From the NCBI GenBank assembly GCA_039818205.1, contig JBCBUK010000022.1:1-39920 (forward strand): 39,920 bases of DNA, read 5' to 3'. The position numbers were made by a program, and so were the translations under genes. Positions 11,675 through 33,118 of this stretch are shown here, one piece after another; position 1 is the first letter of the stretch; every line of letters begins with the position of its first letter. The notes under the pieces are model-generated. The model searched no databases. It had not been told where the DNA came from and saw nothing but the letters and a program-made list of their open reading frames with translations. Origin of the DNA: Verrucomicrobiota bacterium (GTDB taxonomy: Bacteria > Verrucomicrobiota > Verrucomicrobiia > Opitutales > Cerasicoccaceae).

Positions 11675-12484
11675 TTAAGTTTGGAAGTTGTTCATCCACG
11701 AATCCCCTAGGACAATACCTATGCGCTCAGATGAAGCTGGCTCCGGGTGTGTGCCATCGGAATAAGTTATAGCTACTCCCAGGGGATCATCGATTGAAAC
11801 GGTAACAGCATTCGCGTCAGCCGCACCCACGGCTTCCTGTGCATTTCGAACAGCAAGCAAACCAGCTGAAGGTGCGCTAGGTGCTTGCCAATTTGGACTT
11901 CTCCCAATCAGCCAGGGAGTATTTGCGTTAGCGAGCGATACGTTTGTTCGGAAGTAGCTAAGTAGACTAGTCAAATGAGGTTGGTAGTTGCTGTATAGGT
12001 TGGGATCACTTCGATCACTCGACCCCTGAAACCAAATGAAGCCCAGTAGATTAACCGTCGCACCGAACTGGCCAAGCCGCTTGAACGCATCTTCAAATCC
12101 CTCTAACGCCCTTTCACTCTGGTCGGACTGCCCGCCAGGTATTGGCTCCAATCTATCTCCCTCGGGAATGAAGGCGGTGATAGAGTGGCCGCCAACCGCA
12201 TGCTTGAGCGTGACAAGGTTGCGTAGACCCCGCTTTGCAAGTTGCCGCCCTGCACTGACGTTGAGCCCAAAATTGTAGTCATCGGGAAATCCTGTTGAGT
12301 TCATCCGCTCGGCAAACGTATAGACACCGTTCTGCTTGCCGTTTGTTAACTCAATTAATCGGTGATCATTACCCCGATCGACATTCGCAAAGGACTGGCT
12401 AGAGGGTCCATTCATGAGGCTTTGCCCCATGCAAACCACCACGTTCCAGAAACTAGCATCTTCGATTCTAATTGGAGTGTTCAT
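11675..12484 (-). CDS. SGNH hydrolase, sialate/carbohydrate O-acetylesterase-like (SASA)
   Basis: GQS nucleophile (CMGQSL), AVGG, WFQG(S)SD and DxxH (DGTH). Confidence 0.85.
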   Translation of the reverse strand: MNTPIRIEDASFWNVVVCMGQSLMNGPSSQSFANVDRGNDHRLIELTNGKQNGVYTFAERMNSTGFPDDYNFGLNVSAGRQLAKRGLRNLVTLKHAVGGHSITAFIPEGDRLEPIPGGQSDQSERALEGFEDAFKRLGQFGATVNLLGFIWFQGSSDRSDPNLYSNYQPHLTSLLSYFRTNVSLANANTPWLIGRSPNWQAPSAPSAGLLAVRNAQEAVGAADANAVTVSIDDPLGVAITYSDGTHPEPASSERIGIVLGDSWMNNFQT

Positions 12485-12495
12485 AATTCAAGATC

Positions 12496-15400
12496 TTAGA
12501 TTAAATCCGATGCACTTGCGTCACGACTAGCGTCACTCGACCCTATCAAATCAGGCTTTGCCAATCCCGACTCTGAGAAATCAATGATGCGCTTCAGCCC
12601 ATTGACGAACAAGATGGGTTGCTTTAGGTAAATTGCTTCAGTTGATCCACCATCGCCAAAGGTTGAGGTATTGGCAGTTGAACCCAGAAATATTCGTAAA
12701 CGTCCGATGTCAGTGGACCACCCAGAAACCAAGCCGCTACCGCTAAGCCTGTAAGCATACCCAGTTGGTATATCAAATCCAACAGCAACAAGCTGAGTTG
12801 TCTCCGAAGAACTACTGGCTGTCGCGTCGATCCGCAAAGCGTCAATCACCGTGTTTGCACTTGGCGCATATACCAGGATCTCTATCCGTAGATCGTCACC
12901 ATTCTCAAGGCTATCGAACCATGCGTCATTACTGGCAATATTGAGATAATGTGTTGTGTTGTCACTATCGCCTTCGAGCGCCAACTTAACCCAGTCGTTT
13001 TCACCCGCTTGACCGTCAACGTTGTTCGTTAACACTGCATTAGGGCTGCTGAGGTCGTCCCAATTGAAATCATCAAGGATGATCTTTGAACGGTAGACCG
13101 TAGAGCGCCATAAGGCCGGGTTCTTTTTGCGGCGGGTCACTTCAGAAAAAGGAGGTGCCCCCTCTTCGAAGGTCGCAAGACCTAGCAACATCAATGGATA
13201 GTGATTAGTCCCGTCAGATCCGAATTTCCAGCTCGCACCACTCGAAACCGTTTGAGCGGAAGCACTCGAAATATCAAGAAATTCGATAGTGCCGTCATCC
13301 GCATGCAAAGGCACTTCGTTAATATAGACCACCATGTCACCCGCGCGGCGGATCGTAACGAAGACCCTGGCCAGTTCTCCAACGGAAACGTAAGCCGAGT
13401 TTGCTGTCGTGAAAACGTGCGTCGTAAGATTAGCACCGTTGCCGATCTTCAGAGTAAATGTCCCGTCTCCGTTCCACCAAAGTTGCTCACCAGTATTGGC
13501 ACTGACATTCGACCAAATTATAGAGTTATGAGCGGGACGGGCGCAGATGAGCGAGACTGAATGATCTTTGGTGCCAAAGTCTAGGGCTGGCATTGTAGCG
13601 ACGGCACTACTCCCATCTGAGAACGAACCACTTAGAGTCGAGAAGTATGCGAAATGATCAACCTGCTCAAAAAGCGATTCTAAGTCGCCTATTCGCACCT
13701 CTAGGCCATCAACTCGGGTTTCGGAAGCCCCTTGAGTTTCAAGTGTAGAAATTCGGGTCTCATGATCGGCAATACTAGCACCATTGGCCGTCGCTGTTGA
13801 TTCGACGCTGTCAATTCGAGACTCACTTGCCCCATGAATAAAGCATCTAAAATTCGTGATATTCACGTTCGAGCCGCCCGCAGCGACTACGAATTGCACC
13901 CGAACTTCTCCAGCGAAAATCGAGATCAATTCAACCGTATTGCTCCCCGTCACGAAGCCGCTCAGGACTTGGTTTGATGCGACAGTTCCGTCAAGTTCTG
14001 AAAGCCTTGTCTGGCTGATTGCTGATCCATCATCACAATCAAAGGTCAAGGTTACCTTCTGCCCGACAACAACGTTAAAATTCCCGTAAAAGCCCGTTGA
14101 GCTCTCATTAGCGGGAACCGTGAAACCGTCGGACAAAGCGTTTGCAACATCTCCTGATCGCAGGAACCTAGTAGTTCGAAAAGAGCGCCCTCCCCAAAGG
14201 GCGCCGATTGAATCAACGTCAGATCGGTCATTCCGGGTCTCACGAGCTTCTGTGTCGTCGTCTCCGTAAACTTGAATGCTTGTTGCGGTAACGCTTCCGC
14301 CGGTGTTCGATGAACCATACGTGAAGATTACACAGGCCCCGGCTTGGTCTTTCTGAGCAACAAACTCGATTGTGTTGCCACCAACTATCAGATCATTTGG
14401 GCCAAAGTTCTTGTCACCCATAACTGTCGAGAGATTGCTTTCTCGCAAGGTGAGAGAACTTAGCCCAAACAATGATGTGATATTAAAGCTCACCCGGACA
14501 ATCTGACCTTCGAACACATCGAAGAAATAGCGAGCAACTTGAGATAAGCCCCCCGTTACATCGAAACTTGTCGCAGTTGGATTGGATATACTTCCAGTCC
14601 AAATATCATTTATCGCGCTATCCCAACGCCTAGTTATATTCACATCCAGCTTAGCCTGGGAAATTGATTTATCGGCAGGCAATGGCGCAGAATCCGCAGC
14701 CTCAGTGAAATCCGTATAGTCGCCTGCCGATCCTCCATTGAACACCATCCGGTCTGTTGCAGTGAATCCATTTCCCTCAACAAGCACACGATAGTAGTCT
14801 TTATTAGCAACGAGGCCAACAGTTGAAGGCGCCGCCCCAGAGCAATCGTGGTATCCTTGGAACGCGCCGTCATTTGCGTTTAGTTTCGCTTGGCTTGTGG
14901 CGTCGAGATTGCCTTCATTGATGGATTCAGGATCAAGATTTGAACCGTCTTTGTTTGCTTTGAGCTGACTAGAAGCGATTCTTGATTCTGTTTCTCCATC
15001 AATAGCGACCCGCAACGCATCATCCGCAGCCTCGCGCGCCACCTGCTCAGCGCTCAGATCGGCTTGAACTTCAGTTTTGTCGGCAACGCGCAATCCGTCT
15101 ACTTCAGCAGCGCTGTAGTAGGACTCAACCAAATCGGGAGGATCGCCAGCCAGGCCACCTGCCGCATTGCTGATATTGATGTCAGCAACCCAGACTTGTA
15201 TCAGCTCCGATGGATCAGCAGCAGTCAGCACATAAGCGTGAATCCGATGCTTGCCTTCTGATAGTGACATTTCGTCCTTGGAAAACTCGATCACCGCATG
15301 CGCCTTAGAGCCATCCGCCCAGCTTACATCCGTCAAGGTGTTATCCAATTCAGCCCCGGTTAAGACCCGTTCTAAAGTCTTCGGCGCATCCTCGGCGGGA

Positions 15401-18896: not shown

Positions 18897-21011
18897 TTAG
18901 CCGTTGGTCTGAATCTTGATGATGCCGACGTGCTTCACGTCGCCATAGGCCAAGTCCCAGTTGGCAGGCGTCGCCAACTCAGCGTTGGTCGCAGACTGAC
19001 CGGCAATCGCGCCGATGAACGCGGTTCCACTCGGGTGAAGGATGTAGCGGGTCCGATCGATGATGGTTTTTTGGTTGAGCTTCTGATCCACATCGAACAC
19101 CAGCGAGGCCACCGAATCAGGCTCACCGGCAACGGAAATCTGCGGCTTGTCACCCATCGCGATGGAGCGATTCTTAAAGAAGTAGGTGCTGTAGACGTAG
19201 CCGCTGGTTGCGCCAGGCCGGACGAGCGAGTCATCCAGGAATACGCGGAAATCCTTGTAAGTCTGCATGATCACCTTGCCGTCAGCATCCTTGACCGTGA
19301 TGATGTCCTGCTGCTTCAACAGGGCGGCATGAATGATGGAATGCATAACAACCACCCCTCGCAGCATGCCCGGCAAGGCTTCACCCATGAGCGCCAATCC
19401 GTCGATGGCCATATCCGAATCAATCAGATTCGCAGGATCAGGGACGGCGCCATCTTCATCGAATTGACTCAACACAAGCGGCGCGAAGTCGGCATTGCCG
19501 AAGATGCCAGTCAGCATACTGTAGAGCGCCTTGGAGCGTTGGCGCATGCGCAGACTGCCATAGATGCCCATCGCGAATCCAAGCGGGTCAGTGCCTGAAA
19601 TAGCGCCGGAAAGCGAGGATGCCGCCGCTGCCGACACACGGTTGAGCGGAACAGCAATTTGCTTGCCAGAGGCGATTCCGTTGATGGTCGGCGCGTTTTC
19701 TTCGTCTTGAACTTCGTCATCGTAGTCCGGTTCCTGAAAGAATGGGATGTTGATCGTTTCGCCCGGACCCGAAGCGCGCCGAACCATATCGGTATCAGTG
19801 TAGACAACGTCCGTGTTGAGGATGTTGTGCTGCTTGATGACGTATTCGGGCATTCCATTGACCCATACGTCAGGCACCCACAAATCGGAGATCTTGGTGA
19901 CAGCGAACTGAATGCCCTTAGCGGCGAGCTCTTGAGCATGTTTCAGCGTGGCGCCGGAAAATTGCTGAGTGATCACTTGCCCGCCTTGGCCTTGGCCCGC
20001 GCCCATTGGCACCGTTTCGGCGCCGTCTTCCTGGAGTGACTTCGTTTTCTTCTTTTCGGCGGCGAGCTCCGCTTCGAGATCCTTTACCTTGTCGGCCTTG
20101 GCGCGAAGGGCTTTGATTTCGTTTTGAGTGTCTTCCTCCTTCAGCGCGGCGTCGATTTGGTCGCAGGCGGCTTGAACACCCTCGTCGGATTCAATGTCAA
20201 CATCGTCGTCGAGGTTGAATGCAAGGGCGAAGGCCCGATTCAAACGAGCCTGATCGTTGGTAAACATGGCACGTAGGGCCTTCTTGAGTTTGTTCATGGT
20301 ATTTGATTTTAGATGATTAGAATTGTTTAAATGATTTTGGATGATGCCGGGCATGATGTCCTCAACTGCCGCTCGCAAAGAGGATTTGAGATCGACTGGT
20401 TTTTTCCCGATGCCAAGCTTGGCAAAAAGACCATCAGTAGCCGCCCCATCGGCAACGAAAGCGCTGGCGAAAACTTTGGTGACGCGAAGCACGGGCGCTC
20501 CCTCGTATTGCAGCTCAATGTCTTCCGGCCTTTCCCGGTATTCCGTGCCTTCCTCGTCCAGATAGACGAGGTATCCCCAGATTTCTACTGACTGCTGTAT
20601 GAGGCGCGGTGACTTGTCCGCCATCTCCAATACCTGCTCCACGATGAGGGGATACTTTTTCTTGAAGTAGTCGTAGAACTCATACTGAGAAGCAACCAAC
20701 TGCTCACCAGAGACAGAGAGCCCGGAGAAGAATCCAGGGATATCAAGCTCACTCTTGTTGAGTGATTCGAACCAATCATTGAGCCAATCGGAGCCTGCGC
20801 CACGGTGGTCGTGGGTCCAGTAGGATCGCAGCTGGCCATCATATTGATCTTGGGCAGCATCAACTACGTTTTGCAGCGTGACAGTATCAACCATGAAACC
20901 ATGCCCCTCGGCAGGTCCAACTTGCATAAGCAGGACGCCACTTAGGGTTTGCGCGGCTGCATCCACCGCAAAGCGCTTACCTTTGCCGTTTTTGAGTATG
21001 AATTTTTTCAT
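18897..21011 (-). CDS. Fused prohead protease-scaffold-major capsid protein
   Basis: N-terminal G.A.GH...D, TH, S and DGLF protease-like motifs; charged helical linker; capsid domain from about residue 370 (TKISDLWVPDVW, GETINIPFF). Confidence 0.8.
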   Translation of the reverse strand: MKKFILKNGKGKRFAVDAAAQTLSGVLLMQVGPAEGHGFMVDTVTLQNVVDAAQDQYDGQLRSYWTHDHRGAGSDWLNDWFESLNKSELDIPGFFSGLSVSGEQLVASQYEFYDYFKKKYPLIVEQVLEMADKSPRLIQQSVEIWGYLVYLDEEGTEYRERPEDIELQYEGAPVLRVTKVFASAFVADGAATDGLFAKLGIGKKPVDLKSSLRAAVEDIMPGIIQNHLNNSNHLKSNTMNKLKKALRAMFTNDQARLNRAFALAFNLDDDVDIESDEGVQAACDQIDAALKEEDTQNEIKALRAKADKVKDLEAELAAEKKKTKSLQEDGAETVPMGAGQGQGGQVITQQFSGATLKHAQELAAKGIQFAVTKISDLWVPDVWVNGMPEYVIKQHNILNTDVVYTDTDMVRRASGPGETINIPFFQEPDYDDEVQDEENAPTINGIASGKQIAVPLNRVSAAAASSLSGAISGTDPLGFAMGIYGSLRMRQRSKALYSMLTGIFGNADFAPLVLSQFDEDGAVPDPANLIDSDMAIDGLALMGEALPGMLRGVVVMHSIIHAALLKQQDIITVKDADGKVIMQTYKDFRVFLDDSLVRPGATSGYVYSTYFFKNRSIAMGDKPQISVAGEPDSVASLVFDVDQKLNQKTIIDRTRYILHPSGTAFIGAIAGQSATNAELATPANWDLAYGDVKHVGIIKIQTNG

Positions 21012-22858: not shown

Positions 22859-24802
22859 CTAATTCTGCACCTCAATCACGCCACGCTCTGAAGATTTCTT
22901 TTTTCTGGCCGCAGCAGAACGTTGATTCTTTAGGACGTAGAATAGCGCTATTCCGTAGACCTCACAGTCACCTCCATGATTGTTTTTGGCCTTTGATTCA
23001 AATATCCAATCCGGCTTGCCCGCCGCCTTCTTTTTTCGAGGAACGCGCCGCTCATCGAGTAACTGAATGAATAACTGCTCACGCTCGCGAGCCGCCTCGT
23101 TCAGCTCGAAATCAGAACGCAACTCAAACTCATCACTGGATTGCAGAGAGTAATAATGCCAGCCGCCAATTTCCCCCTTCAGACGCTTCTCAAGCTCCAG
23201 TTTGAAATGATAGGTAGAAATCTCCAGGCATTTGACTTTGATCTCTTTACCCTGATTCCTGCCACCCATGAAGGCGTTACGATTCTCGATGCGGACAATG
23301 TCTTTCTTGAGGAATTCGTAGCCCTCAACCCCATACCATCCCATGCCCTTCGTTTGGCGCAAGTAGATCGCCTCAAGCGTTTCCTGGCGACGGTCTGCAA
23401 AGGAAATGTCAATGATCACATAGGATCGCTTACCTAGTTGCTGATAGTCTCGCTGGATTTGCTCCAGATCATCAAATGATGCTACACACTTCCCTTTGAC
23501 CGTAGCATGGTCAATGCACCACGATTCCCCATTCCAGTTGTAGCCCCGGACAACGTATGGGATTCCCCAAGTTTGCACGTCTGCCTCAACGATGATCAAG
23601 TCAGCCTTTTCTACATCAGCAGGCAGTTTGCCACGGACGTAGTTCGCCTCCAATCGGGTAAGCTCAGAGCTTTTTAACGTCGTAGCGTTTTCCACCCAAG
23701 GAAGACCCATTCGGAGATTCCAGAATTTCTGACGATCCGTGTAGAATCCAGTATCGCGAGAACTCAGAAAATCGACGGCCAAAGCCCCCATCTCGTTAGA
23801 CTTATTCGGGCCATAGAGCCCGTTTACGTGTCCGGTCCAATACTTCGGATGCCCTTTTTTTGTAGCCCTCCAATGAGCGCGGGGGTCGCGGACAGCATTA
23901 GTAACCGCCTTCTGATCATGCAACTTGCCACATTCCGCGCAGCGGTAGCGCGTGAGATCACGAACCGCATCGAGGTCATATTGGTCTTTCGAAATTCGTG
24001 TCCGCGGGTCATAAGTCCAATCCACTTGCTTCCAAGCCAATTCCTGAAAGTGCCCGCAGGGTAACGGGACGAAATAGCGCCGTTGATCGCCCAACAGATA
24101 CTCGACCCAAATGGTCATAGTCTCAAGCGTTGGCGTCGAACTAAAGCAATGCCAACGAAGATCATCAAAGGATTCAGAACGCGCCCGACACTGATCAATG
24201 ATTGACGCCTCTTTTGCCGTCGCCAAAAGCCACTTGTCCACCTCATTGCCCAAAACCCGCTGGCGAGTTTTACCACTAACACCCGTAACAGTATTTGCGC
24301 CAACCATTTTAAAAGCGGCGCCCGGAAACAGCATGCGCGTTGCCGCAAACAAATGGCGGTTATTCGGCTTACGCGCCCGCAAAATCGGGTTCGAATTTAC
24401 CAGTGGAATCAACTCCTCATTCGACACATCCGAAGCAGAGTCGGCATTCATATCAATCCAGAGCATAGACCCCGGATCTCCGGCCACCGAATATGCAAAG
24501 GCCATGCGCAATAGGAAAGTTTTACCAATGCGCGTAGGAGCGACGAGGATCACCTCTTGAACGTTTGGATCATCAATCGTATCCAAAGGCTCGCGCAAAT
24601 ACGGCGTGTAGCTAAAATCAACCTTGCCCGGCTTAGATTCATTGGCGCCAGATGGAAGGACGATTTTCGATTCACACCACTCAGAGGCGCTCAATCGCTC
24701 AGGAGCCGAAAAGAAGCCACGACTCGCCCCAATGAGCGACTTGAAGGCCGCTCTATTCTGAATGGCCAGCCGCTTGCCGAATCCCGTTAGAAAATACATC
24801 AA
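22859..24802 (-). CDS. Terminase large subunit (GpA type)
   Basis: TPYLREP, Walker A PTRIGKT, NEVD, SSTPT, GDQRRY.VP..CG, DVQ and NNH..DCE.Y. Confidence 0.95.
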   Translation of the reverse strand: MMYFLTGFGKRLAIQNRAAFKSLIGASRGFFSAPERLSASEWCESKIVLPSGANESKPGKVDFSYTPYLREPLDTIDDPNVQEVILVAPTRIGKTFLLRMAFAYSVAGDPGSMLWIDMNADSASDVSNEELIPLVNSNPILRARKPNNRHLFAATRMLFPGAAFKMVGANTVTGVSGKTRQRVLGNEVDKWLLATAKEASIIDQCRARSESFDDLRWHCFSSTPTLETMTIWVEYLLGDQRRYFVPLPCGHFQELAWKQVDWTYDPRTRISKDQYDLDAVRDLTRYRCAECGKLHDQKAVTNAVRDPRAHWRATKKGHPKYWTGHVNGLYGPNKSNEMGALAVDFLSSRDTGFYTDRQKFWNLRMGLPWVENATTLKSSELTRLEANYVRGKLPADVEKADLIIVEADVQTWGIPYVVRGYNWNGESWCIDHATVKGKCVASFDDLEQIQRDYQQLGKRSYVIIDISFADRRQETLEAIYLRQTKGMGWYGVEGYEFLKKDIVRIENRNAFMGGRNQGKEIKVKCLEISTYHFKLELEKRLKGEIGGWHYYSLQSSDEFELRSDFELNEAAREREQLFIQLLDERRVPRKKKAAGKPDWIFESKAKNNHGGDCEVYGIALFYVLKNQRSAAARKKKSSERGVIEVQN

Positions 24803-25569
24803 GCTACCTCGTCCACCGGTTCCGACAACTCCTCATCAATACGGCCCATCATCCCATCCATGAGCGCGAAAAACTCATCATTCTTGGCATCAATCACGTT
24901 GCGCGCGTGGTCAGGATTATCTGGGTTTACCTCACGACAATACTGTTCCCCTTGCTTAATGAGGTAGCGCCTGACCTCCTGGAGTATCCCACCAACCACT
25001 GACATGACCTCATCGAGATTGATTGCGCTACGCTGCTGTAATTGAATCTCAAGCCAGCGCTCACAGGCGCTTGAGGCGTTCTTGTTCGCCTCGTTAAGGT
25101 TTTTCATCGCGTAAGTTACTGACGCGTGGTCGCCCTTAGATACTGCCTGATCAAACATTGCTTGAGCGAGTCGCGCAGTCTTTTTCGCGTTATCAAGCAT
25201 GATATCGGCGAAATCGCGCGGGTCATCAGGCAACGAGCCAGGATCAATAACTGCCAATTGAAGCTTCGAATCGTGAACAGGCTTATCCGATCCTTTCGAC
25301 ACTCGCGCCGCCTCCTTTCTGCGAGGAATAGCAGGCGCATTTTGCGCCCTCCAAGCATCTGCCTCAGCCAATGTCCGAAAGCCAGATTGACGCTTATTAT
25401 CGGGGTTACGAGGCATGCCCTTGCGCGCATAGAGCTGGCAAATATAGCTTCGTTCGACATCCCAGTAGCGTGCCAAGTCCGCGCCGCGCACCCCCCCCTC
25501 ATGCACCTCCTCAAGATCGAACCCGTGTGTCCCGCCTTCTTTCATCCGCTGAAGGAAATCGCCGCCCAA
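24799..25569 (-). CDS. Terminase small subunit
   Basis: Winged-HTH (ADLARYWDVERSYI..L...GMP) plus coiled coil, directly upstream of the large subunit. Confidence 0.75.
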   Translation of the reverse strand: MGGDFLQRMKEGGTHGFDLEEVHEGGVRGADLARYWDVERSYICQLYARKGMPRNPDNKRQSGFRTLAEADAWRAQNAPAIPRRKEAARVSKGSDKPVHDSKLQLAVIDPGSLPDDPRDFADIMLDNAKKTARLAQAMFDQAVSKGDHASVTYAMKNLNEANKNASSACERWLEIQLQQRSAINLDEVMSVVGGILQEVRRYLIKQGEQYCREVNPDNPDHARNVIDAKNDEFFALMDGMMGRIDEELSEPVDEVA

Positions 25570-25646
25570 GCTTCCCGCAACCCACCGAACAACCCGCCAC
25601 TCCGTGATGAAAAATGGCTTAGGTCCGATAATTTGTTGAGCATGTT

Positions 25647-25728
25647 AATCAAAATTTTCGAATAATGTTCATGGAGAGGCTTCAACGTGAAGAGGAACCT
25701 CTTTGAACGTTGACTCTACAAAGGACCC
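25647..25728 (-). other. Putative cos packaging site
   Basis: GGGTCCT (lambda cosQ sequence) at 25722-25728, a dyad at 25682-25713 and GAAAATTTT, all upstream of terS. Confidence 0.55.
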
Positions 25729-25761
25729 GCACTGACACAATTGATAGGGGAGGGGGCCTGC

Positions 25762-26412
25762 TCAAAGCCCCTCAAGCTTATCCCTGACCTCGTAGAGCCG
25801 ATTCTTGAATGTTTGTTCGCTCACACCCAATCGCTTGGCCAGCTCACGCGCGCTGCTGACCTGGAGTAAGCTTGGGTCGATATGGAAAAACAGCGCCATC
25901 AGTCGAACGTAGCCCGTCTCTGCATTCCGCACTGACTTGATGCCGGTCTCGGGTAATACCAACTCAACCAGCCGACGCAGGCGAAGCTCCTGCTCGCCCG
26001 ACTGAAACAACGCATTGAGCTCGACATGAGCCTTGATTTCACGCGCTTTACCGGTCCTGGCCTCCAAGGCGAAGGCCTTGAAAGCCGATATTGTCATGCC
26101 AATCAGCTCTCTTTTTCGACCAACTTGAGATTTTTTTCTATTTTCCTCATTTGTGAGGAAAAGTTGATAATCAACGCCTTGCGTGAATCTTGACTCAAAA
26201 AATCGCATCGCGTTAAACTTTTTTTTATATCCAAGCCATCTCCAGGCGAGATCAAAGCACACAGGGAACGGCTCCTCGAAACGGCTGAACGATTCGGCCA
26301 CTTCATCCAGGCCAAAAGCGTCATCCGGCTTCACTGCCGACCATCCCTCCTTTTCAACTAGCCAATCGACTTGGCTGATATCCATATTTACGCGCTTGCC
26401 CAATCCAGCCAT
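25762..26412 (-). CDS. Regulator with AntA-like N-terminal DNA-binding domain and C-terminal HTH (late regulator candidate)
   Basis: FPV.FD.AW.WLGY..K....F..GVDY; SARELAKRLGVSEQT. Confidence 0.6.
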   Translation of the reverse strand: MAGLGKRVNMDISQVDWLVEKEGWSAVKPDDAFGLDEVAESFSRFEEPFPVCFDLAWRWLGYKKKFNAMRFFESRFTQGVDYQLFLTNEENRKKSQVGRKRELIGMTISAFKAFALEARTGKAREIKAHVELNALFQSGEQELRLRRLVELVLPETGIKSVRNAETGYVRLMALFFHIDPSLLQVSSARELAKRLGVSEQTFKNRLYEVRDKLEGL

Positions 26413-28526
26413 TACGCCGCCCCTCCGATCTCTTCAGTCTCGGCTAAATCCACCCCGGGAAGTTTGGGACGGTTTTTCTCTATATACGCGCGTATGTATG
26501 CGGGTGTATGTGTGTGAGTGTGTATAAGGCCATCAATTACCTTCCCATCCTTCCCGCGACTCAATGACTCGTTTTCAGCACCCATAACAGTGCTTCGATT
26601 TCTCAGTTGCTTAGAGGCAAACGGGTCGTAGCCGATGGCAAAGCCAAAATCGTAAACGCCTTGTGGTATGATTCTTATGATAACTTCGGGCGTCTCTCGG
26701 GGGAAGAACTCAGGCAGGCATTCAGCCACATCTCCAGCCAGCCAAAGGACATTCGGAAGCTTGTTATGCTTCCGCCAGTATGAACGAAAATGCATGCGAT
26801 AGAGCCTCCAAAAGGCTAATTTGTGACCATAGACCCTAGTCAAATTCTCGAAATTTCGAGGCAAATCAGGCGATTTTTCATCAATATCGGCCTCTTTTTC
26901 GTCAATTTCATCAACGTTCGACGCCTCAGACTGTCCGTAATCGAGCTCATCAAGCATCTCGTCCAGGTCAAATTCACCATCAGGCGCACAATTTCTCGCA
27001 TGATCAGACCCGGAATTCCCAAGGATACCGACCGCCTGAGCCGTTTTTCTAGCCGTTGAGCCCTGTTTTTGAACGTTTTCTCCCGAAGAATCACCATTTC
27101 TAGGCCGGAAAATCTTCAAACCCGGCCGGGAAACTCGGGATTTCGACGCCCCTTTGCGTGGGGGTCTGGGGGCGACGGCTGATGCCGAGGCAGACCAAGC
27201 CCGCTCAGCATCCTTTTGAGCGCTGCTAAATTTCACGTTGATTAGGCGGGCCACCTCTTTGAGGTAGCCCTCGCGAACCGTGATCTCATCCACGTTGATT
27301 AGCAGTTTGTATATCTCGTCCAAGGCCACCCCCTTTGCCCTGGCGCTTGCTTCCGTCGTTTTAGGCAAGAGAGATTGGACCGCAATTTCCATTGCGGATA
27401 AAGGCGCCTCCGACAGCTCATCAATGGCGCGGGCGCCACGCTCGCGTAATAGCTCATCCGGGTCCGAAGATTCAGGAAGTGATAGAAAGGTTAGGTCTAG
27501 GCCCGATTTCAGCGATTCGGCCAAAAGCCGATAACCCGCTTTGCGTCCAGCTGAATCACCATCCAAGAGCACATTGAGATTGCTTGAGTATCGTCGGAGC
27601 ATGGTGAGCTGATCCGCCGTCACTGCTGTCCCTTGCGGCGCAATGGCGTTCAATAGCCCCACCGAGTGGCAACGAATCGCGTCCAGCTGACCTTCCACCA
27701 TCAGAAATGCGTCACCCTCGCGAATCGAACGCCGCGCGCGATCTAGGTTGAACAACAGCCTGCCTTTTTTGAAAATTCGAGTCTCTGGCGAGTTGACGTA
27801 TTTCGCCTCACGCGCGGGATCTTCGGGCGGAGTTGCCGCCGTCTGGCGAGCAGTGAAGGCGCAGCAACGCCCTTGCGCATCCAGGATGGGAATCATCAAT
27901 CGCCCTTGAAAACGGGCCTTGGCCCATTTTAGGTTTCGATCCGATTCGCGATGGTAGTAAAGACCGCTTTCACGAATCACTTCGCTGGAGAAGCGTTTGC
28001 GCAACTTCTTTAGGAGACAATCGCCATCATCAGCGGGCGCATAGCCAATTTTGAATTCAACCGCCGTTTCTATCGTAAATCCCCGGCTATTTGTCCAATA
28101 ATCACGAATGCTAACGCCTTCATCGCCATCCGTCTCAAAGCAAGTTCGAAAGTAATTCGCCGCAAGGTCATGGAGAGCATACAGCTCTTGCCTTAGGCCC
28201 CGGTTCGCGCGTTGCCCCTCTGTTTCTTGTTCATACTCCAGTGATACGGAAAAACGGCGCGCAAGAAACTCCACTGCCTCGACAAAGGAGAGATGTTCCT
28301 TCAGTTCCAGAAATCGAAATACATCGCCCTTTTCGTCAGTGGAATAACAGTGAAATACATTCTTGCCATCATTCACAAAGAACGAAGGCGATTTTTCATT
28401 CGTGAAAGGCGATAGACCTTTCCACTCACTGCCAGCACGCTTGAGCTGAGTGTAATCTTGGACAAGCTCAACGAGGCTCGCACGCGCGCGAACCTCGTCA
28501 ATGCAACTTTCCTTTATGCGCGGCAT
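26412..28526 (-). CDS. dnaG: DnaG-type DNA primase with a non-canonical C-terminal extension
   Basis: GLSPF..EKSPSF, RF.GRLMIPI, KYVNSPET, VEG.LD, GTA and DGD.AG. Confidence 0.93.
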   Translation of the reverse strand: MPRIKESCIDEVRARASLVELVQDYTQLKRAGSEWKGLSPFTNEKSPSFFVNDGKNVFHCYSTDEKGDVFRFLELKEHLSFVEAVEFLARRFSVSLEYEQETEGQRANRGLRQELYALHDLAANYFRTCFETDGDEGVSIRDYWTNSRGFTIETAVEFKIGYAPADDGDCLLKKLRKRFSSEVIRESGLYYHRESDRNLKWAKARFQGRLMIPILDAQGRCCAFTARQTAATPPEDPAREAKYVNSPETRIFKKGRLLFNLDRARRSIREGDAFLMVEGQLDAIRCHSVGLLNAIAPQGTAVTADQLTMLRRYSSNLNVLLDGDSAGRKAGYRLLAESLKSGLDLTFLSLPESSDPDELLRERGARAIDELSEAPLSAMEIAVQSLLPKTTEASARAKGVALDEIYKLLINVDEITVREGYLKEVARLINVKFSSAQKDAERAWSASASAVAPRPPRKGASKSRVSRPGLKIFRPRNGDSSGENVQKQGSTARKTAQAVGILGNSGSDHARNCAPDGEFDLDEMLDELDYGQSEASNVDEIDEKEADIDEKSPDLPRNFENLTRVYGHKLAFWRLYRMHFRSYWRKHNKLPNVLWLAGDVAECLPEFFPRETPEVIIRIIPQGVYDFGFAIGYDPFASKQLRNRSTVMGAENESLSRGKDGKVIDGLIHTHTHTPAYIRAYIEKNRPKLPGVDLAETEEIGGAA
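26456..26556. repeat. Inverted 18-bp arms with tandem GGGA iterons around an alternating purine-pyrimidine core; candidate origin
   Basis: CGGGAAGTTTGGGACGGT at 26456-26473 versus reverse complement CGGGAAGGATGGGAAGGT at 26539-26556 (15/18); palindrome ATACGCGCGTAT at 26484-26495. Confidence 0.55.
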
Positions 28527-28792
28527 TAGTTTTTACAGGGATCGTGAGGCTTCCTGTGTTTAACCCCCGCTATCACCGACCCGGCGCTCTCCAGAAGTGA
28601 CCCGGTTATCATAGCGACGTATTTCTTTCCACTCTCGTCTACCAACTGGAGATCGACAGACGGATTTCCACCTTCCATGCCGTCGCAAACGACAATGCAT
28701 TTTTGCAGCGTCAGTCCTTCCCAATCTCCATCCTTATTATAGTTGGGAGCCTCAAGCGGACTATTCACAATTTTGATGTTCAATACATTCAT
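28526..28792 (-). CDS. Hypothetical protein
   Basis: 88 aa ORF coupled to dnaG through a TAATG overlap. Confidence 0.65.
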   Translation of the reverse strand: MNVLNIKIVNSPLEAPNYNKDGDWEGLTLQKCIVVCDGMEGGNPSVDLQLVDESGKKYVAMITGSLLESAGSVIAGVKHRKPHDPCKN

Positions 28793-28842
28793 GATTTTTA
28801 TTGTTATAATTCAAAATTTGACTCGTGTGATAAAATTCACCC

Positions 28843-29043
28843 ATGACTACTATTGACTGGAAGAAAGCTCCGAAGGATGCCCTGTGGTGGGCGGTCGATG
28901 AGGATGGCAAAGCTCACTAGTATTGCCGACCTGAGGCCGATACTCGCATGCGCTGCCGTTTTTGGAACGCCGCATCCCATCCAGCTCCGACCTTTGGCTA
29001 TCAGGGCGACTGGACGCAGAGCCTGGTTGAGCGACCTCGCTAG
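28843..29043 (+). pseudogene. Small Trp-rich phage protein gene with an in-frame TAG at codon 26
   Basis: MTTIDWKKAPKDALWWAVDEDGKAH*YCRP...FW....PAPTFGYQGDWTQSLVERPR*; extended -10 TGaTAAAAT at 28828-28836. Confidence 0.7.
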
Positions 29044-29209
29044 GGCAGGGAGTATGCCCAACGACACACCAAGTTAATTTACCCGTATCTATGTGTATCC
29101 ACGCATCGCCCGCCCAATCATCGCCGCGCCTGATTCTCTTATCGTGCTCAGGCGCCCGCACATAACGCATTTCCTCTCTGCGTTCTTCTGTTAAAAAATC
29201 CTGGATCAC
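28850..29209 (-). CDS. Hypothetical protein; the C-terminal half is probably a shadow of the antisense gene
   Basis: GTGA-coupled to the helicase stop; only the first 50 or so residues look protein-like. Confidence 0.4.
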   Translation of the reverse strand: MIQDFLTEERREEMRYVRAPEHDKRIRRGDDWAGDAWIHIDTGKLTWCVVGHTPCPSEVAQPGSASSRPDSQRSELDGMRRSKNGSACEYRPQVGNTSELCHPHRPPTTGHPSELSSSQ

Positions 29210-31377
29210 GTCAGCGCCTCTCTTTCTTTGCGTTCACGTTCAGTCTCTTGCCCAATAAAACGCACCCCGCGATAGCCGGACACATCGCCGCCTTCGCTGC
29301 TCTTTACTGAACGGCTTTGCGCCGCCTGGAAGAGGGATAGCATCATGTCGCCAAGCTGGCGTTGCACCTTGCGCGTTGTTTCCGCTTCCCAGCCCTTGAG
29401 CTCACAGTAGCGAGCATAGGCGCTGGTAATGTCTTCAGTCGGTAGACTGGAGCCCGCATGCTTCTCAATGGAATTTTCCAAGAACACCCGAATCGAATTA
29501 CTTTCCGAGAGCAGATCGGCTACCCGGCTTTCCTGCTTGTCCGTCTGGCTGATCTTGATGTTCACTCGCCCCTCATCATCAATTTTCATGATTTTGAGGG
29601 CCTCAGAGAGAATCGCATTCAGGATTCCTGGACCTTCGGTATCTACGAGGAAGCGCGCAAACTTGTTGATGACTTTCTTGGGCTTCGGAGCATCGAAATT
29701 GATTGTCAACAGGCGGCGGTCCCACGCCTCTTCATCATCCGCCGAGCTGACTTTCAATTTGCCATTACAGACAATGCCAATGTTATAAGTGCCCTCCAGC
29801 TCGATGGTCTCATTGCTTCCCTTCAACTCAGCGTCCACGAGGTCATCCCCGGTAAGCTGTTTCAATCGTTTGGCGCCCTTGACCTGGAGAAAGTTCCCCT
29901 CCACGTCCATACCCATAAGCATGGTTTTGCCAATGTAGCGCCCCATCTCGAAACGCTCGACTAGGTGCTCAGTCCGCAGCTCTGCGATGTTATGGCGCCC
30001 AATTAAATACTGAAGCACTTTCAATATAGTGGACTTGCCACGTCCGCCCGGACCCGTGACGATCATAATCTTTTGCGCGTCATTCTGCCCGATTAGGCAT
30101 TGCGCCATCCATTGCATCAGCAGGTGAACATCGTCCTTTTCCTCCAGCCCCGGCCTCACTAGATCGCGTAGGAAGCGCTTCGGCTTGGCGGACGGGTCAA
30201 ACGGGACGGGAATCGGATTGCGCGAGTAGTTGCGCCACGAAAACGGCTCCAGCGATATTTGGCTCAGGCGCCGCTTGCCCGCACAGGATCGCAGGTCAAT
30301 CATACCATTCTTGAGATGTATGACGCCAGTCCCCGTCTTGAAAATATCACGTTTTGCGACTTCACCCTTCAGGAAACCGAACACGCCATTAATGAAAGTC
30401 ATGTTGCGGACATCCGGGCTTTCCAGGCGCGTCAACTCATCCGGGAATATGCGCTCCCATCCCTCCGGCTGCTGGCCTTCTCGGCAATTGATTCGGTGAA
30501 AATCCCGATCTCTCGAAAGGCTTAGCAAGGCATCCGAAATCATCTTCTTTATCTGATCTTCAGCCATCAGGCGCCACCCACCAGTGGCGCTATCATAGGC
30601 GTAATAGCGATCCTCATTCGCTTCCCAGATCACATTATGCCGACGAGCGAACCAGCCCGCCCAAAATGGCTGAGAGAGGCTCTTGAGTGAGTGAAGATCA
30701 ATCGCAACTTCCCCCGGCTTGGGCGGAGGCGGCGCACTATAGGTGAAGGGGCGACCATACACGCGCGTGAGCACGTCCCAGAGCTCCCGCTCCCAGGCTC
30801 CCGTAATTCCCTCAGGCCAGCAAATATCCCAAAAGAAAAGGTCACACACCGGGGCAAAGCTTTCCTCGAAAATATCCACATCGACCAACTCACCGGCGCG
30901 AACCGCTACGAATGAGAATCCATCGCCATGCAGCGGCGCAATGCTCTCGCGCAGGTATAAATGCCCGGCGATCCGATTGCCGCGCTTCACCTTATAGGAA
31001 TTCATCAGTTCACCATCCTCGGCCACACCATCCGGGAAGCTTGGGAAGCTTTTCGCGCGCGCCTCCGGGTCAATGCGCAATCGGAAAAACAACCAGTAGC
31101 CCGCATCACTGCGCACAATCACCGTAGCGGAAAACTCAGGGTTGACCGCCACAAACGCCAAAAGCTCTGCCTCATCGGACAAGTGAAGACTGACAAGGCC
31201 AGCCTCGCCCAGCATCACGCCAATGCTGCCCGCTACCAGCGGGATTTGTGCAATGTCCAGCGCACCCAGATTTTTAAAGCCTTGCCCCACGGGATTCCCG
31301 TCCGGGTTGATCGGCAGAAAGACAGACCTAGGCCCCATGACTTCATACAATCGCTTTGTTGTGCGCTGTTCAGACAT
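29206..31377 (-). CDS. P4/D5-type SF3 helicase with a degenerate N-terminal Prim-Pol domain
   Basis: D5_N-like I..KNG.IDL, Walker A GPGGRGKST, LK.LTG.D, IVCN and WDRR; N-terminal IGV.LG..GLV without the DxD motif. Confidence 0.88.
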   Translation of the reverse strand: MSEQRTTKRLYEVMGPRSVFLPINPDGNPVGQGFKNLGALDIAQIPLVAGSIGVMLGEAGLVSLHLSDEAELLAFVAVNPEFSATVIVRSDAGYWLFFRLRIDPEARAKSFPSFPDGVAEDGELMNSYKVKRGNRIAGHLYLRESIAPLHGDGFSFVAVRAGELVDVDIFEESFAPVCDLFFWDICWPEGITGAWERELWDVLTRVYGRPFTYSAPPPPKPGEVAIDLHSLKSLSQPFWAGWFARRHNVIWEANEDRYYAYDSATGGWRLMAEDQIKKMISDALLSLSRDRDFHRINCREGQQPEGWERIFPDELTRLESPDVRNMTFINGVFGFLKGEVAKRDIFKTGTGVIHLKNGMIDLRSCAGKRRLSQISLEPFSWRNYSRNPIPVPFDPSAKPKRFLRDLVRPGLEEKDDVHLLMQWMAQCLIGQNDAQKIMIVTGPGGRGKSTILKVLQYLIGRHNIAELRTEHLVERFEMGRYIGKTMLMGMDVEGNFLQVKGAKRLKQLTGDDLVDAELKGSNETIELEGTYNIGIVCNGKLKVSSADDEEAWDRRLLTINFDAPKPKKVINKFARFLVDTEGPGILNAILSEALKIMKIDDEGRVNIKISQTDKQESRVADLLSESNSIRVFLENSIEKHAGSSLPTEDITSAYARYCELKGWEAETTRKVQRQLGDMMLSLFQAAQSRSVKSSEGGDVSGYRGVRFIGQETERERKEREALT

Positions 31378-31392
31378 ATACGCAGTAGCGAC

Positions 31393-32238
31393 CTAGAATT
31401 TCTTGCCGCCATGCATATGCGGGCGGGTCTTGTTAAACTCCGCTTTCTCCACGATGGCTCCCGCAACATCCAAACCCATGAAGCATGCAGTATCCATGAT
31501 GCGAATGATCGTATCAGCGAACTCACATTCGACCATCGGACGATGGGGCAGCTTATCGTCTGAGAGGCCTTTTCGGTAGCCTTCCAAGGCTTCGCTTAGC
31601 TCGCTATGCATCAGCGAGATCCAGAGGCCTACATGTGCCGGGCGGAAGCCCAGTGACACATCCTCATAGAAGCCCTTCGAAACCGCCGTTTCGTGAACCT
31701 CGCCAGAGAACACCGAAAAAGCATGCTCGATGCCCCGTCCAAGCTTATAGCGCGAGCGCAAATCAGCAGCCAATTGAGGATACTCAGAAGCGATCAAATC
31801 GGCGTAGAGCGACAAGGCCGCACGGCAAGCCTCATGATGCGGTGCATGCGCTCCACCATCTAGCCTCAACACAAAATACTCAGCCAATGGATTTACCGGC
31901 GCTCCGTCCGATTTCGTAACAATATACTTGTTCTGTAAACCATCACCGGAATTCGGCCCCTTAGCGGCAGGAATATCGATGTCTTCCAACGAGATTTCAC
32001 GGATGAAATCCCATTCAGGATGCTCCTTTTTGTCTTCCGCGCTTATCTCCGTATCGGTGACTTGGCATTTGCCATGCACCTTTCCCCAACAAATTTCAGA
32101 CTCGTTTTCATGCCAGTGCCAATCGGAATCAGCAGCATGGTAGCGAGCGGCTTCAATCGCATCATCAGCACGGGATTGTGCCTCATGCGCGGTGTCATGG
32201 AATTCTATTCCATCATTTGGATCATATGAATAATACAT
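31393..32238 (-). CDS. Multidomain protein with C-terminal MazG-like NTP pyrophosphohydrolase
   Basis: L.HSELSEALE..RK...E.ADTIIRI.D...K..FN..RP.HGGK. Confidence 0.8.
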   Translation of the reverse strand: MYYSYDPNDGIEFHDTAHEAQSRADDAIEAARYHAADSDWHWHENESEICWGKVHGKCQVTDTEISAEDKKEHPEWDFIREISLEDIDIPAAKGPNSGDGLQNKYIVTKSDGAPVNPLAEYFVLRLDGGAHAPHHEACRAALSLYADLIASEYPQLAADLRSRYKLGRGIEHAFSVFSGEVHETAVSKGFYEDVSLGFRPAHVGLWISLMHSELSEALEGYRKGLSDDKLPHRPMVECEFADTIIRIMDTACFMGLDVAGAIVEKAEFNKTRPHMHGGKKF

Positions 32239-32242
32239 AGTT

Positions 32243-33118
32243 CTACTGGTTAAAATATCTCGTTAATTCTTGGCCTATCCAGCGCCCCACCGGAACACTA
32301 ACGCCGTTGCCAATACCGCGATAGGCTTCCGTATCTGAGCAGTTGAACGCATACCAGTCAGGCACCCCCTGAAGCCGTGCGTATTCACGGACGGAGTAAG
32401 GGCGAACGCCCATCGGAAAGTGTTTGTCGGCAAGTAAGCGAGTGCTCTTATCCTTCGCATAATGCGCCACGCAAGTAGGGGCAATGTCGCCCTCGGCTGG
32501 ATCGGAGATAATAGGGCGATCTCGATACTTGCCCTGCATGCGGTTTCCAATCGCCTTAGGCAACGTTACGCGCGGATCATCTTCCACAATCGACGCGAGC
32601 GAAGCGCGCTTGCCCACTTCAGGCTCACGCCAACCAAAATTCCTTTTGGCGCCAAAGATAATCAGCCTGTCACGCCGTTGCGGTAGCCATGTTTGACTCC
32701 GAATCGGGCAAAAGCTAATGACCCAATAGTCAGGCAGTTGCGCCATTGCCTCCATCACGAGAGGAAAGGCGCGCATCCCCGGAACGTTCTCAATCACGTA
32801 GACCTCCGGGCGCTTCAAGGCCATGTGACGAAAAGCATGGAGAAATAATTCATCCCCGGACCTTGTCCCATGAATGTCGGCGATGGTTGAATACTTCGTG
32901 CATGGGTAGGTAAACACCATCACGTCAGAGTCATTCTCATCACTGACGAGCTTCTTTGAGATGTCGGAAGTTACGACATCGTGCCCCAGGTTTTCACGCT
33001 GGACTCGCGATGCCGTTCCATCGATCTCAAAGGACTGACCAATGGACACACCGGCCTGACTCAAGCCAATGTCCATCAGGCCGAAACCTGAGAAATAACT
33101 GTTTACCGAAAACCCCAT
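32243..33118 (-). CDS. DNA (cytosine-5) methyltransferase
   Basis: Motif I FSG.G, motif IV PC, motif VI ENV, motif VIII Q.R.R and motif X GNGV. Confidence 0.9.
   Translation of the reverse strand: MGFSVNSYFSGFGLMDIGLSQAGVSIGQSFEIDGTASRVQRENLGHDVVTSDISKKLVSDENDSDVMVFTYPCTKYSTIADIHGTRSGDELFLHAFRHMALKRPEVYVIENVPGMRAFPLVMEAMAQLPDYWVISFCPIRSQTWLPQRRDRLIIFGAKRNFGWREPEVGKRASLASIVEDDPRVTLPKAIGNRMQGKYRDRPIISDPAEGDIAPTCVAHYAKDKSTRLLADKHFPMGVRPYSVREYARLQGVPDWYAFNCSDTEAYRGIGNGVSVPVGRWIGQELTRYFNQ

Follow-up and report, generated by a model that had tools for sequence, protein, structure and literature searches.

The window analysed here, a stretch of 39,920 nucleotides, makes up the whole of contig C22 in genome G000 and carries a lambdoid prophage of a marine bacterium of the Verrucomicrobiota. 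Two of its genes are considered in detail. The first encodes an initiator-helicase of 723 amino acids (aa) (29206..31377, minus strand), in which a very likely dead primase-polymerase (Prim-Pol) domain precedes D5_N, a superfamily 3 (SF3) ATPase, and a winged helix. The second, downstream, is an open reading frame (ORF) of 704 aa (26412..28526, minus strand) that fuses a DnaG primase to a phage-derived domain, here called domain X. A candidate replication origin lies inside this second gene.

The first 190 aa of the helicase (30808..31377, minus strand) form a degenerate, archaeo-eukaryotic primase (AEP)-type Prim-Pol domain, which had no direct Pfam match. For comparison, 85 of 152 stored homologues were aligned, picked by N-terminal coverage or length. 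The relatives' N-domains match PF09250, and a profile of 77 of them scored the window domain at 39.8 bits, with 500 shuffled sequences reaching at most 3.8 bits. When the N-domain was modelled (predicted local distance difference test [pLDDT], 66.5), the best structural match was the Prim-Pol of pRN1 ORF904 (VIA Z, 8.6; root mean square deviation, 3.6; 152 residues aligned), which came top in both VIA and Foldseek, with other AEPs next. The N-domain is Prim-Pol derived. An earlier note on this DNA had recognized the Prim-Pol pattern from the sequence alone and called for a structural check, and both the profile and the model agree with it.

The three metal-binding acids of this Prim-Pol are missing from the window helicase (D65H, D67S, and E139H). 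H65-L66-S67 (31177..31185, minus strand) stands where the DxD of motif I belongs, followed by D68 and E69, exactly as the earlier note had described. H139 (30961..30963, minus strand) holds the motif III Glu position in alignment A1; a larger alignment places S127 there, and neither residue is acidic. Among the 85 relatives, the motif I Asp residues are kept in 83 and 82, and the motif III Glu in 78. Because motifs I and III, both essential for AEP catalysis (PMC4538821), are lost, the sequence marks the domain as very likely dead. W95 does sit at the motif II His position, but it was rejected as a sign of decay. This column is N in 38, Q in 26, and K in 10 of the relatives (74/85) and His in only 4, so W95 is uninformative. 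A relaxed motif II His is also known in other AEP groups (PMC5862659).

The decay extends beyond the active site. Only 17 of 31 conserved family columns are kept in the N-domain, the joint lowest count among 78 rows. In 24-row trees, the end branch of the window measured 2.13 for the N-domain and 0.65 for the remaining parts of the helicase; the corresponding values for the intact sister P0002 were 0.30 and 0.34. By branch length, the Prim-Pol domain is the fastest-evolving part of the helicase, at about three times the rate of the remainder. Two of the three lost acids are now His (H65, 31185; H139, 30963), near the conserved H150 (30930), possibly by chance and possibly as a new metal site.

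Past the N-domain, the helicase keeps 17/20, 52/58, and 7/7 conserved columns (77-relative alignment; 8 rows with other N-domains dropped). The 52/58 belong to the SF3 AAA+ domain (aa 401 to 625; 29503..30177, minus strand), where Walker A (442 to 450), Walker B (D491), motif C (N538), and the Arg finger (R554-R555) are intact, in line with what had been noted from the sequence. The 7/7 belong to the C-terminal winged helix (29209..29502, minus strand), predicted to bind the origin from the examples of P4 alpha and the Rep proteins of Staphylococcus aureus pathogenicity islands (SaPIs). With D5_N also present, the protein has all the parts of a D5/P4-type SF3 initiator-helicase. It scores 99.1 bits on TIGR01613, slightly below the cut-off of 108.7, and an intact relative likewise falls under it. 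The helicase model matches African swine fever virus PrimPol, SaPI5 PriRep, and poxvirus E5. By analogy with SaPI Reps (PMC9371898), the helicase would unwind 3' to 5' and bind iterons.

The 704-aa fusion starts with a captured DnaG core (aa 1 to 445; 27192..28526, minus strand) composed of a Cys-poor zinc-ribbon-like domain, a catalytic N-domain, TOPRIM, and a helical bundle. It passes TIGR01391 (353 bits; cut-off, 283.6) and matches PF01807, the DnaG N-terminal zinc-ribbon domain (E 2e-27). The catalytic core has the TOPRIM Glu, DxD, and DPD acids and the basic ridge; E278/D282, D322/D324, and D355/D357 are intact, and all 56 columns conserved at at least 90% in 58 chromosomal DnaGs are kept. 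With an end branch of 0.73 to 0.85, the phage DnaG is, by its conservation, under selection. It is 50% identical to the host DnaG across residues 1 to 439, and the similarity ends at about residue 440. Against a profile of C-terminal domains from 37 Opitutales DnaGs, the 259-aa tail reached -2.2 bits, below the best of 300 shuffles (2.0) and below 20/20 outgroup DnaG tails (2.2 to 54). On this profile, the phage DnaG has lost its DnaB-binding C-terminal domain. The earlier description as a full bacterial-type DnaG with intact TOPRIM thus holds for the acids but not for the length.

In quick trees, the phage DnaG nests among the chromosomal DnaGs of the host's family f1, with those of G007, G006, and G011, which represent other genera (Shimodaira-Hasegawa-like approximate likelihood ratio test, 98). 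Capture from the present host genus was rejected (approximately unbiased test, p 0.011). By this placement, the DnaG was captured from the host's family, which answers the question of phylogeny that the earlier note had raised. The host's own dnaG adjoins rpoD on contig C3. The Cys-poor zinc ribbon of the phage DnaG is common to chromosomal DnaGs of the host's order (L070-L106), in which the Cys/His ligands are mostly missing; they are kept in other Verrucomicrobiota.

A counterpart of this locus is found in the same genus. Genome G003 carries a syntenic prophage, L013, whose helicase is 43% identical to that of the window and has intact acids. The order in L013 is helicase, two unrelated ORFs, a 370-aa gene, a helix-turn-helix (HTH) gene, terS, terL, portal, and capsid. 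The 370-aa gene occupies the slot of dnaG and shares with it the C-terminal domain X (E 7e-15), which spans about aa 553 to 641 of the DnaG fusion (26604..26870, minus strand) and is 37% identical over 89 aa, with identity lowest at third codon positions. The N-terminal 100 residues of the 370-aa protein had no direct Pfam match; homologues of its start in L019, L020, and P0170 match PriCT-1 (PF08708) at or above cut-off. Usually fused to the AEP, PriCT domains have been proposed to correspond to the primase large subunit (PMC5862659). No DnaG was found in the L013 prophage, and the DnaG matches of G003 lie on other contigs. Since L013 has intact acids, no DnaG, and PriCT-1 fused to domain X in the DnaG slot, these gene contents indicate that DnaG replaced PriCT-1 in place and that L013 is the earlier state of the swap. 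The central proposal of the earlier note, an AEP primase replaced by a captured host-type DnaG, is thereby upheld.

Domain X had no Pfam, PHROG, or Atlas identity. Weak Atlas leads (0.83 to 0.84) toward a DnaB/DnaG tail were rejected by the Opitutales tail-profile score, and a likeness to the accessory-protein tail of locus L048 is unsupported and improbable. No other carriers were found in the protein search or the viral contigs, and 400 genomes of the order yielded only G003 and one match at E 8e-4. A complex prediction of the helicase (1 to 710) with domain X scored 0.00 against a mark of 0.32, with the partner fold uncertain, and is not evidence either way. In L013 (2531-5140), two further ORFs separate the helicase from the accessory gene, and the slot looks like an insertion hotspot; one of them, for which no family match was found, has a putative phospholipase D/HKD-like motif. 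The chromosomal dnaG of G003 (L095; G003:C25:25824-27138) is in two pieces in different frames, perhaps by sequencing error.

The candidate origin (26457..26555, unstranded) occupies codons 658 to 690, at the 3' end of the dnaG fusion, and consists of two inverted pairs of iterons with a 9-bp period around a 69-bp spacer. It is the sole such site in the window, 2.65 kb downstream of the helicase, and shows the SaPI-type layout of at least two opposed iterons per side, an AT-rich centre, and a position downstream of the helicase; the spacer is only modestly AT-rich (58% versus 48% for the window). In SaPI origins, inverted iterons of this layout are bound by the winged helix of the helicase (PMC9371898), and by analogy this site is likely the replication origin. 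The same layout occurs within 3.5 kb downstream of the helicase in 37/45 loci, about half of them near-clonal and with the matches in L020 probably due to chance. Among 22 fresh loci, iterons were clear in 5 and doubtful in 1. Background counts were 5 sites in 4.8 Mb of host DNA and, within 1.26 Mb of viral DnaG loci, 6 loci, including one after a D5 helicase. The iteron site falls within the accessory gene in 10 related lineages besides the window. Because the iterons sit in the same gene, the dnaG fusion can be recognized as the accessory gene independently of domain X. The embedded iterons may be one reason why the 3' half of the gene was kept.

For the survey of the helicase family, 64 helicase ORFs were grouped into 40 clusters at 70% identity, leaving out two duplicate loci, L022, and the non-helicase L254, and flanks of up to 10 kb were examined. 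The custom profiles for PriCT and the zinc finger were built partly from the surveyed loci themselves. Intact acids were found in 24/40 clusters, 23 by their representative and one, with 21 members, whose representative is cut by a contig end. In 22 of these 24, a separate downstream gene encodes PriCT (9) or a CxxC zinc finger (13), and one of the remaining two ends at a contig edge. DnaG was absent from all 24 intact clusters in the loci covered and from 5 viral records searched in whole. No window ORF matched either custom profile at E up to 1. The two decayed clusters, the window and L048, both lack an accessory module, and only the window has DnaG.

The stand-alone CxxC zinc-finger protein, which has no clear Pfam family, takes the accessory position directly after the helicase in L017, L028-L049, L054-L056, L059-L062, L237-L242, and L247, where PriCT-1 stands in other loci. 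It is likely a trans-acting zinc-binding module of the primase. The other 14 clusters have different N-termini or none, including a fused TOPRIM (L252), DUF3854 (L016), and a BT4734-like domain with PriCT-2 (L065). Helicases of about 490 to 520 aa without any N-domain occur in L015, L058, L064, L066, L245, and L251, with separate TOPRIM-like genes just upstream in L064 and L251. Given this variety of N-termini and modules, primase modules are swapped often on this helicase. Among 80 viral DnaG loci, 3 have a host-like DnaG beside (L158 and L166) or fused to (L195) a D5/SF3 helicase. In L158 (9998-13650) and L166, a full host-like DnaG lies directly upstream of the helicase; in the fused case (L195:9887-13270), iteron-like inverted repeats directly follow the DnaG-D5 gene. 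Single-protein scans of viral contigs found nothing, and cultured-phage records gave distant helicases only.

We favor, with a probability of about 0.68, a reading in which, in either order, a two-gene AEP primase decayed and a chromosome-type, host-family DnaG was joined to the accessory gene that bears the origin, where it replaces PriCT-1 and likely primes. The loss of three acids, the absence of PriCT, the conserved DnaG core, the lost DnaB tail, the shared domain X, and the iterons within the gene are all read directly from sequence. If replication starts as it does with SaPI Rep and P4 alpha, the winged helix would let a pair of helicase hexamers load themselves onto the inverted iterons, and unwinding would proceed bidirectionally, with the hexamers travelling 3' to 5' along the leading-strand template. 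On the displaced strand, primers would then be made by the DnaG fusion and extended by the host polymerase. Having lost the DnaB-binding tail, the fusion protein would no longer dock on the host's DnaB, and domain X may, speculatively, direct it to the phage fork. The dead Prim-Pol domain would most likely be a vestige under relaxed selection.

Several results weigh against this reading. The fusion is known from one genome only, with no second DnaG-X fusion in the protein search, 400 genomes of the order, or viral contigs, so the co-occurrence of DnaG and decay counts as a single event. L048 (P0038; 8998-11876) decayed independently (N-x-D, motif III lost, end branch of 1.99 versus 0.61), and this provirus, 92% complete, gave no DNAG_N, Toprim_2, or DnaG match. 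Prim-Pol decay thus does not need DnaG capture, and the co-occurrence of DxD loss with dnaG that the earlier note had wanted checked across relatives holds for the window but not as a strict coupling. The accessory gene of L048 is replaced by one for a helical protein without a usable Atlas match. With regard to the origin, the iteron pattern was derived from the same 45 loci in which it was counted, and only 4/9 fresh Prim-Pol-type loci have it. In addition, the SaPI primase is stated to be non-essential in vivo (PMC7581432), so host DnaG could do the priming.

Some of these points favor another course of events, in which the Prim-Pol died first, the phage uses host DnaG, and the captured DnaG is an uncoupled booster free of DnaB and host control rather than a dedicated partner. 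L048, the helicases without an N-domain, and the dispensable SaPI primase all fit it. However, the position taken by the DnaG in the origin-bearing gene is exactly that of PriCT, with domain X kept in frame, and the DnaG has lost the DnaB-binding tail yet kept 56/56 conserved columns; moreover, L064 and L251, with their TOPRIM-like genes, are not clearly primase-less. We consider this course unlikely, although it is the strongest of the competitors.

Somewhat less probable still is that the dead Prim-Pol is retained for binding to the origin or to the DnaG fusion, just as, when live, it had to meet its PriCT partner in trans; retention for origin or partner binding was also the suggestion of the earlier note. 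The domain is full length and in frame, is predicted to fold (pLDDT mostly 60 to 91 in the full helicase model), and has conserved hydrophobic and Gly/Pro positions as well as H150. However, it is the part that evolves fastest and keeps few of its columns, relatives can drop it altogether, and the intact winged helix together with the iterons gives a better account of origin binding. Finally, a surviving or re-made metal site, formed by D68/E69 or by His65 and His139 with His150 and supporting priming or another reaction, is very improbable: H65 and H139 do lie on predicted core strands (61 to 66 and 135 to 141), but the essential motifs I and III and the PriCT partner are gone, and D68/E69, as judged by alignment and secondary structure only, are not compensatory because these positions are acidic already in most intact relatives (e.g., IDIDHDE and IDIDDDE) and start the following helix.

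The favored reading, replacement of PriCT-1 by a host-family DnaG, can be extended, more tentatively. The family may have a split AEP primase, with a PriCT-1 or zinc-finger "large subunit" supplied in trans from the origin-bearing gene, and in the window this gene would now supply a DnaB-blind DnaG docked by domain X on the SF3 hexamer as a dedicated primase. If true, a cellular primase would have been retargeted, via one tail swap, to a helicase running on the other strand.

The pairing itself is not new, although the earlier note had named it as its best candidate for an undescribed system. A DnaG-type primase is already coupled to an SF3 helicase in P4 alpha (PMC4889955 and PMC2777425), and in the viral survey of PMC4889955, SF3 with DnaG makes up 14% of cases, with viruses having one primase type only, apart from one exception; the 3/80 viral DnaG loci described above are further precedents. 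That primase modules on D5 helicases displace one another in place is likewise an established idea, inferred from domain architectures (PMC2579912). P4 alpha and the window have in common a TOPRIM primase that works with an SF3 helicase, D5_N, and a winged helix for origin binding (PMC4889955 and PMC2777425). However, the primase of the window is separate, downstream, of chromosome type, and from the host's family, and its helicase keeps a dead AEP domain.

SaPI pri-rep-ori modules (Rep1 and PriRep5) are alike in their self-loading SF3 helicase, C-terminal winged helix, and inverted iterons around a spacer just downstream (PMC9371898; structure match, 7ola). In contrast, the AEP primases of SaPIs are encoded upstream of rep or fused to it, whereas the window iterons lie inside a coding gene, and in its family the iteron-bearing gene supplies PriCT, a zinc finger, or DnaG. 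pRN1 ORF904 (PF09250 plus SF3) has the fold and domain order of the window helicase. Its PriCT-1 bundle is within the ORF904 protein (PMC5862659), whereas it is a separate gene in the phage family, where the motif II His is absent family-wide and the window copy lacks all three acids. L158, L166, and L195 also pair a full cellular-type DnaG core with D5/SF3, but they are distant phages without an AEP remnant; with a primase-less helicase after DnaG or a DnaG-D5 fusion, they resemble the outcome of a swap that the window shows only half done.

Literature searches gave no paper on this helicase family or this swap; supplements were outside their scope, and comparable cases may figure in the per-virus tables of PMC4889955. 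These searches turned up no accessory gene that encodes PriCT or a zinc finger in trans and also embeds the origin, and no half-finished swap with its earlier state at hand. With DnaG and SF3 pairing already known, the window is an unusually clear snapshot of the swap, in which the earlier state, donor clade, junction, and decaying old enzyme are all readable in one case. It also offers a testable pair for asking how a cellular DnaG lacking the DnaB-binding tail can work with a helicase that moves 3' to 5', and it exposes a family-wide layout with a trans PriCT or zinc-finger module in an origin-bearing gene.

The genes from the helicase to the HTH gene run head to tail, with stop and start codons overlapping at 28526 and 26412. 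Between helicase and dnaG lie an ORF of 119 aa (28850..29209, minus strand), with no family match and no assigned function, and one of 88 aa (28526..28792, minus strand), also without assigned function, whose stop overlaps the dnaG start. Downstream follow a 216-aa protein with a C-terminal HTH (25762..26412, minus strand), a synteny marker common to L013, and then terS and terL; the HTH protein has an additional N-terminal half that is not in its L013 counterpart. No polymerase family was matched among the 37 window ORFs scanned, and promoter and terminator scans did no better than chance.

Among the sequencing runs listed, none of RNA contained this sequence and a single DNA run, X1, did. 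Contigs of X1, which may be the source sample, match 24000-33000 with 0 differences, and one spans 24000-30567; a mis-join in the window is thus unlikely, with X1 not being independent of the assembly. A 52-base X1 contig of lower depth joins 30538-30559(+) to 30644-30673(-), which is likely an amplification fold-back or a short inversion.

The lambdoid gene content includes integrase, tail, capsid, portal, terminase, C5 methylase, exonuclease, and a CI-like repressor. Part of the tail region (11700-14940) is 74 to 82% identical to parts of host contigs C11, C17, and C31. Contig C8 matches the left end (1-882) at 88% identity. By sequence comparison, genome G000 holds several related prophages, none carrying the 723-aa helicase. 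A 704-aa head protein (18897-21011) has a major capsid domain in its C-terminal half and is probably a protease/scaffold-capsid fusion.

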